DNA of 64,000 bases from a bacterium (GTDB lineage Bacteria > Patescibacteriota > Minisyncoccia > UBA6257 > MFKM01). The stretch covers positions 1,368-65,367 of the forward strand of contig JAUYAV010000011.1 in the NCBI GenBank assembly GCA_030693325.1, written 5' to 3'. Below the pieces are notes generated by a model, which saw only the letters and a program-made list of their open reading frames with translations, ran no database searches and was not told the origin of the DNA. The number at the start of each line of letters is the position of its first letter. Within the stretch, counting starts at the first letter, position 1. The translations under genes and the position numbers were made by a program. Shown piece by piece: positions 24,914 through 25,331 of this stretch.

Positions 24914-24960
24914 GTTTATTGATTAATATTTATTGGACGACCTTGGCTGGCCTGGGAAGG

Positions 24961-24993
24961 GGAAATAAAAACCCCGCTCTGACGAGGCGGGTT
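24961..24993 (-). terminator. Terminator-like hairpin inside the leader ORF
   Basis: aacccgcctc-gtca-gagcggggtt followed by a U-rich tail (tttattt) on the minus strand; one bulge. Confidence 0.55.
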
Positions 24994-25105
24994 GGCCAAA
25001 CTGTTGTTCAAATCAAAAACTACCTTGATTAAAAAGGCGACCGTAAGAATCAGGAGAAGATTGATGACCGCTAAGCGGCGGACTTGTTTACTGACTCCGC
25101 TTTTG

Positions 25106-25161
25106 CTCTCTCTCTCTCTCTCTCTCTCTCTCTCTCTCTCTCTCTCTCTCTCTCTCTCTCT
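25106..25161. repeat. (CT)28 / (AG)28 simple sequence repeat
   Basis: 56-nt perfect dinucleotide run, counted directly. Confidence 0.95.
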
Positions 25162-25331
25162 GCGACCCGATGGACAAAGATTGGAAGAAGTTAAATAGTT
25201 TCATAATAAAATTATAACATATTATATATTAATGAAAATCAAAATAGATTTTGCTATAATAAAAAAGGCAGGTAGCTGAGCACTCACTTAATAAAACAAA
25301 AAACGGAGGTCACCACTATCTGCCTTTTTCT

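Follow-up and report, generated by a model that had tools for sequence, protein, structure and literature searches.

A small gene directly ahead of a prepilin-type adhesin gene in a member of the Patescibacteria carries a perfect (AG)28 tract behind its start codon, and a slippage switch very likely acts on this small gene. Past the tract, the complete reading frame runs through a hairpin and U-tract before reaching the adhesin. The fuller reading of this arrangement, a frameshift switch on the small gene that would also gate the adhesin by attenuation, stands in our judgment at about an even chance.

Results

The window, a stretch of 64,000 nucleotides, lies on contig C11 of the focal genome (G000; 661,185 bases, 40% GC, 96% complete). 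On its minus strand, positions 25211–25238 contain a predicted sigma-70 promoter with an extended –10 element (TG-n-TATAAT, 25219–25211) and a weak –35 hexamer (4/6 at 25238); a second TATAAT lies at 25226–25221. The ATG at 25204 begins 6 nt past the –10 box, giving a near-leaderless start, and an identical box lies 6 nt ahead of the ATG in the paralogous cassettes on C12 and C20 and in genome G004. This promoter call fits the genome, in which a TATAAT lies within 25 nt of the first ATG in 59 of 495 long ORFs (at 6–8 nt in 32), and an SD-like motif occurs in just 30 of the 495.

The switched small gene starts with 14 codons (25162–25204, minus strand) for an N-terminus that recurs in the paralogs and also in an in-frame secreted gene of G004. 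They lead into the perfect (AG)28 tract (25106–25161; TRF score 112). With the assembled 28 units, the frame ends at a stop codon at 25088–25090 and gives a 38-aa product; with 27 or 30 units, it ends at 25071–25073. With 26 or 29 units, it stays open through to a TAA at 24918–24916, 2 nt from the adhesin ATG at 24913. The small gene is ON if the number of units modulo 3 equals 2, and the assembled allele is OFF. Scanning of six phases found only three dinucleotide tracts of at least 5 units in the 661,185 bases, every one in this cassette, which places (AG)28 far beyond chance.

A long perfect repeat near the start of a membrane-protein gene, with one of three frames complete, is the arrangement of a frameshift contingency gene. 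In the Helicobacter pylori genes oipA, hopZ, sabA, and babB, a CT/AG run just behind the start codon leads to frameshift switching. The repeat of the H. pylori genes lies in the adhesin gene itself, whereas here the repeat belongs to a small gene upstream, distinct from the adhesin gene; loci L113 and L175, with the repeat directly in a prepilin gene, likewise differ from the focal locus.

Elsewhere in the window, 9-base palindromic tandem arrays are found at 5120–5160, 7511–7551, and 17544–17584, and rpoB and rpoC, identified by eye, form one fused 2266-aa ORF (9563–16363). A long palindrome recurs after several stop codons in the focal genome, whose only long G/C runs are the homopolymers C15 (G000:C11 76448–76462) and G10 (C20 133246–133255).

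Examination of related sequences shows that the cassette recurs. In the focal genome it stands ahead of prepilin paralogs on C11 (28 units, OFF), C12 (13 units, ON), and C20 (23 units, OFF), and four more fused copies were found beyond it: G004, L050, L052, and G132, the last identical to L051, of the same order and labelled Candidatus Wolfebacteria. Tracts in the seven fused copies with DNA measure 21–56 nt; three copies are ON and four OFF, a mix found across paralogs and species and not within a strain. As in contingency genes, unit numbers differ and both states are present among homologs. A prepilin gene lies downstream in all six fused copies with downstream DNA, and also at locus L053. 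The cassette is uncommon, with strong matches to the small gene in 2 of the 401 genomes examined from the order, a count that leaves out eight weak matches outside the genus for which the scan showed no AG tract, and in 1 of 51 and 0 of 96 genomes in further sets. Genome contigs and metagenome contigs gave two small-gene loci each, one of which duplicates G132. A near-identical cassette, with a prepilin gene, sits on the L050 contig, which is classed as Omnitrophota; mis-binning or transfer is possible.

These copies bear on whether the tract is a working switch at all. The gene might instead be decaying and the tract expanding neutrally, or the unit number might be mis-assembled and the true allele ON. 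Assemblers tend to make errors in a perfect repeat of 56 nt; the unit number given here is that of the assembly, and the contigs of the sequencing run with this DNA agree exactly with both flanks but break off at the repeat. A miscount, however, would alter the state and not the switch. In addition, all three tracts of the genome directly follow the start codon, at homologous sites, OFF copies retain an intact ON frame under purifying selection, and both states occur, which together make this alternative quite improbable. The box, the tract, and all three frames are present as a first-pass annotation of this DNA had described them, and its proposal of a slippage-type switch ahead of a pilin-type adhesin, assembled OFF, is supported by the recurrence of the cassette with differing unit numbers and states.

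The ON frame (24916–25104, minus strand) encodes the body of a conserved small single-helix membrane protein, with a hydrophobic 19-mer at 25074–25018 (hydropathy 2.71 over 19 residues) and an NPPxxSGxF motif at 24993–24967. In the 27-codon helix core of the seven DNA copies, dN/dS is 0.09–0.40 across unsaturated pairs and 0.09–0.18 between the focal copy and its four closest copies, and the variable columns by codon position number 14/7/20 of 27. Protein searches returned 11 relatives, of which four carry an Arg-Glu repeat, one a short remnant of it, and six their own Met and no repeat. No significant family was found for the small protein in Pfam, NCBIfam, or the protein atlas, or for the leader RNA in Rfam, where a Trp_leader match (E 0.5, 18 bits vs. 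a gathering score of 41) was rejected as chance.

When a profile of the small protein was compared with 12 long secreted CPR proteins, four beat 200/200 shuffles each, and N-terminal helix-plus-PPxG modules scored 13.5 bits in L179 and 4–5 bits in L049, L036, and L016. Because these scores beat those of shuffles, the small gene probably derived from the helix-plus-PPxG module of secreted proteins. Judged from these sequence comparisons, purifying selection and the existence of a stand-alone gene elsewhere indicate that the ON product is more than a leader; it may act in cis as well.

The gene downstream (22274–24913, minus strand) encodes an 879-aa prepilin-type surface protein, a predicted adhesin, with an N-methylation motif (Pfam N_methyl) and a concanavalin A/laminin G domain (Laminin_G_3). 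The paralogous adhesins have their first 280–355 residues in common and diverge beyond. The N-terminal domain of the adhesin is found in 197 of 301 genomes, and a small ORF or repeat lies upstream in 1 of 30 loci checked, namely the focal locus; as sampled here, the adhesin family at large does without the small gene.

A fourth paralog in the focal genome (G000:C20 109300–112563, L182) has no cassette and has its own TATAAT, with an in-frame TAG at codon 158. Ahead of the start of the cassette-bearing C20 adhesin (L015, about 1880–1910), the –10-like hexamer is degenerate (TAGAAA), and the cassette-less L002 has TAAAAT there; the adhesin's own promoter may have decayed once the cassette arrived. 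The C12 paralog (G000:C12 3753–7997, L180), whose cassette is ON, terminates in a 141-nt variable region (5798–5938), and 16 of 16 mismatches to the template (5076–5216) fall at template adenines. An avd-like ORF, recognized by eye, and a reverse transcriptase adjoin this region, which together with the adenine mismatches mark the C12 adhesin as a DGR target.

Within the ON frame, a weak intrinsic-terminator-like hairpin (24991–24973, –9.8 kcal/mol) and a U-tract (24971–24964, T at 7/8) together span 24964–24991 of the minus strand. A hairpin and 7/8 U-tract are present in 5 of 6 fused copies with tail sequence, at –7.5 to –9.8 kcal/mol (–7.5 to –7.8 kcal/mol in the other four, each 7/8 T), and always within the ON frame, about 80–100 nt beyond both OFF stops. 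The fused copy in G132 is without the tail and without this hairpin.

The hairpin region folds like its shuffles (z 0.10, 105/200 as good), and 52 of 98 terminator-like hairpins after stops in the focal genome are stronger. When synonymous codons were resampled with the peptide kept, a post hoc test on a feature whose five bearing copies share one origin, a feature this strong arose in 1% of cases with genome codon usage; with local codon usage the share was 0.2% for a U-tract of 7/8 T and 2.8% for one of 5/8 T. The background of such hairpins with U-tracts is 1.8% per 190 coding nt (47 sites in 493,317 nt). The low resampling probability is due mostly to the U-tract codons; given the U-tract, the hairpin alone has a P of 0.05–0.08 in C11 and of up to 0.21 in L052.

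The stem coincides with the Pro-Pro and Ser-Gly codons of the protein motif. The same motif, through Pro-Pro and Gly-Gly codons, gives a –7.7 hairpin and a T-rich tail in L179, an in-frame 414-aa gene, and its codons in L053 give a –12.2 hairpin with only 4/8 T; among in-frame repeat genes, 3 of 12 have a hairpin of –7 or better. Synonymous changes in one related-population contig (depth 4.6, possible error) weaken the stem to –5.9. A second candidate hairpin, over the AFLIKV codons, was set aside; its stability does not attain –4 kcal/mol at the focal locus (–4.3 to –13.2 elsewhere).

No match to rho was found in G000, a genome 96% complete, and none over the cut-off in five relatives; NusG is present in the focal genome. 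An intrinsic terminator is therefore the expected route to polarity, and Rho-dependent polarity was rejected. In Neisseria meningitidis siaD, transcription loses its coupled ribosomes through a frameshift and stops within the gene; that polarity is Rho-dependent, which sets it apart from a genome with no rho match.

Post-stop terminators in the focal genome begin within 12 nt of the stop in just 8 of 40 cases, so that by the proxy taken from an excerpt of PMC7858274 there is no strong signature of runaway transcription; the same excerpt describes a different terminator-to-stop pattern for uncoupled Bacillus subtilis. That review, as excerpted, also states that ribosomes fail to mask terminators within the first 100 nt of an ORF (PMC7858274), and the stem, at 213 nt into the ORF, lies beyond this zone. 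On balance, the hairpin and U-tract are somewhat more likely than not to be a real terminator, and a leaky one.

We inspected about 55 distinct AG tracts, of which those in the in-frame, leader, and reverse-transcriptase groups were classified. Five loci of the same class (L039, L044, L053, L098, and L099) have a promoter and a short-leader layout with a separate gene downstream, in which a hairpin and U-tract lie 36–55 nt after the tract and the frames end before, in, or past the hairpin (leaders at L039 1500–1600, L044 1477–1625, and L053 3724–3890). These loci were picked by eye, so their hairpins provide no independent test. The order in L053 is promoter, repeat leader, terminator, small gene with its own ATG, and prepilin gene, and the one long frame of its leader stops in the terminator loop. 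Because this terminator lies upstream of both genes, selection in L053 targets the two genes together; this supports a switch at the level of the pair at the focal locus too, reached by another layout.

These clean repeat-leader terminators, with the recurrence of the cassette, make antitermination plausible at the focal locus, as the first-pass annotation had proposed, even though the focal stem is weak and folds like shuffles. The hairpin and U-tract it reported are present in the sequence, kept in most fused copies and missing from G132. Its leader ORF does contain the repeat, but the ON frame of that ORF is a conserved membrane-protein gene that also exists without a repeat.

That gene could be the sole object of the switch. 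Plain frameshift phase variation would then affect the small membrane protein only, which would act in anchoring, assembly, or display, while the adhesin was made in all states and the hairpin was a by-product of Pro-Pro and Ser-Gly codons. Purifying selection on the helix core, the six of 11 database relatives with their own Met and no repeat, and the resemblance of the peptide to the helix-plus-PPxG module all agree with such a role, as do the absence of the hairpin from G132 and the tracts, at least 12 in number, with which secreted or prepilin genes of relatives open in frame. Weighing against it are the wide occurrence of the adhesin domain compared with the small ORF at a single checked locus, the position of the L053 terminator ahead of both genes, and a choice of U-tract codons that is unlikely under local codon bias. 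We regard a switch confined to the small protein as rather unlikely, and favor gating of the adhesin by attenuation.

A search for an independent pilin promoter between the AG tract and the adhesin at the focal locus, a possibility that the first-pass annotation had raised, found no consensus promoter. This result also suits translational coupling, in which ON-frame ribosomes would reinitiate at or unmask the adhesin start and only adhesin translation would be gated. The TAA-AC-ATG junction had been taken as the basis of such coupling, and a stop-to-start gap of 2 nt here and of at most 25 nt in 6 of 7 copies, the rarity of SD motifs in the focal genome, and the pairing of the focal adhesin AUG in a weak predicted helix are all compatible with it. 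The gap, however, is 2, 20, 137, 16, 6, and 25 nt in six copies and 15 nt in L053, and about 400 nt separate the small gene from the adhesin in a related contig; the overlapping or adjacent stop and start typical of a translationally coupled pair are thus not conserved. The AUG-pairing helix is not kept in L052 (by inspection), and the AT-rich spacer resembles that of an ordinary independent start. Coupling was rejected as a general mechanism, since the gap is not conserved, and we consider it improbable. Across the copies compared, then, the ON frame is conserved and the hairpin singled out by the first-pass annotation is present in 5 of 6 fused copies, whereas the stop–start spacing is not conserved.

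The peptide itself might also have a regulatory part, its nascent helix and Pro-Pro motif serving as a cis membrane-insertion or pausing sensor atop the repeat switch, for which MifM and SecM offer a comparison. A conserved helix does precede Pro-Pro codons, which make up the 5′ side of the hairpin stem, and helix and Pro-Pro always stand directly upstream of a membrane-inserted prepilin. Yet no evidence of an arrest motif was seen, the stretch from helix to PP is shorter than in known monitors, and the motif also occurs inside long secreted proteins, so that a sensor of this kind appears highly improbable.

AG tracts are not confined to this cassette. An (AG)9 tract occurs in 34 of 301 genomes of the order, and the pattern promoter–ATG–(AG)7 in 6 of 401 genomes of the class, compared with 2 for the reversed control. 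In the commonest layout at surface genes, seen in at least 12 tracts, a long secreted or prepilin gene opens with the repeat in frame. Tracts straight after the start, with mixed ON and OFF states, were observed in secreted or prepilin genes at L005, L016, L036, L037, L048, and L049, and likewise at L102, L103, L113, L137, L175, and L179; in such start-proximal tracts, one frame often hits a TAA at once.

About 14 further tracts lie in or at reverse-transcriptase genes (L020, L024, L025, L027, L028, L029, L030, L035, L043, L045, L047, L172, L174, and L178), at several different positions, and 3 of 14 are in frame by a crude test. These reverse transcriptases are DGR-type by look, and in the one scanned, RT models matched below the cut-off. 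Phase variation of DGR activity is a candidate explanation for these tracts. AG tracts were also noted in genes labelled by eye as glycosyl- or methyltransferase-like, restriction-specificity-like, and sensor-like (L021, L023, L140, and L168). At L038 (1280–1550), a (GA)14 leader and a long hairpin lie ahead of a lipoprotein-like gene, on a contig that is possibly a contaminant.

Discussion

In the mechanism we propose, the (AG)28 tract lies early in the coding sequence of a small gene, which is likely cotranscribed with the adhesin as the first of the two genes, and slippage within the population would turn the small gene ON in one frame of three. With 28 units, ribosomes would halt about 100 nt short of the hairpin, the hairpin and U-tract could form, and many transcripts would end ahead of the adhesin. 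With 26 or 29 units, ribosomes would traverse and block the hairpin, also yielding the small membrane protein. Since the stem is weak, termination would be leaky, and low versus high adhesin would be expected rather than none versus all. Three paralogous adhesins with independent copies of the cassette would give up to eight surface states.

This class of mechanism is already published: as an excerpt of Danne et al. 2014 (PMC3894217) reports, phase variation of Streptococcus gallolyticus pil1/pil3 by attenuation has been proven by experiment. Both systems have a short repeat in an upstream ORF, repeat number that sets (here, would set) ribosome access to a terminator, and downstream pilus or adhesin genes that are themselves unchanged. 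As in pil1, the repeat of the focal locus lies in an upstream ORF, behind ATG 25204, with a unit length that is not a multiple of 3; the OFF stops (25088 and 25071), the stem (from 24991), and the ON stop (24916) follow in the pil1-type order, which is kept in five copies.

The two systems, so far as the excerpt of PMC3894217 describes the streptococcal one, differ in several respects. The repeat is a GCAGA pentamer in pil1/pil3 vs. an AG dimer here, the terminator has –18.7 or –28.2 kcal/mol vs. a stem of –9.8, and it lies 33–49 nt past the OFF stop vs. about 80–100 nt. Two of three frames are ON in S. gallolyticus vs. one of three here, and the target is a sortase pilus vs. a type IV-like prepilin adhesin. 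The focal upstream ORF, unlike that of pil1/pil3, is predicted to encode a conserved membrane protein, and the leader loci L053, L039, L044, L098, and L099 are closer to the pil1 layout than the focal locus is (PMC3894217). By its sequence, the focal locus combines the features of a contingency gene with pil1/pil3 geometry and a putative, weak-stemmed terminator.

Within the literature searched, with subscription journals and supplements outside its scope, no report of phase variation in Patescibacteria was found, and a search for phase-variable DGR reverse transcriptases gave no match. The excerpted text of PMC13323073 has no mention of Patescibacteria, and the passages of PMC6851277 and PMC6792436 that matched Candidate Phyla Radiation and phase variation are irrelevant in content.

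More tentatively, and at somewhat less than even probability, (AG)n slippage may be a general bet-hedging device for host-attachment proteins in Parcubacteria, used in three interchangeable layouts: a repeat in the surface gene, a repeat leader with a terminator, and the hybrid described here, in which a functional membrane-protein gene would double as an attenuator leader with the terminator within its own codons. As part of this broader proposal, the three switches of the focal genome would choose among adhesins, one of them further diversified by a DGR, and the same repeats would switch DGR reverse transcriptases in relatives.

Patescibacteria have tiny genomes, encode few regulators, and probably live attached to host cells, as an excerpt of PMC11665869 relates. 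For such cells, pilin-type adhesins that switch at random would offer an inexpensive way of varying attachment and escaping phage. The cassette, less than 300 nt long, points to a family of small proteins that lacks annotation, and within one adhesin family it brings phase variation together with diversification by a DGR. If the terminator works, it would extend the streptococcal mechanism to an apparently Rho-less lineage, with a real protein gene as the leader.
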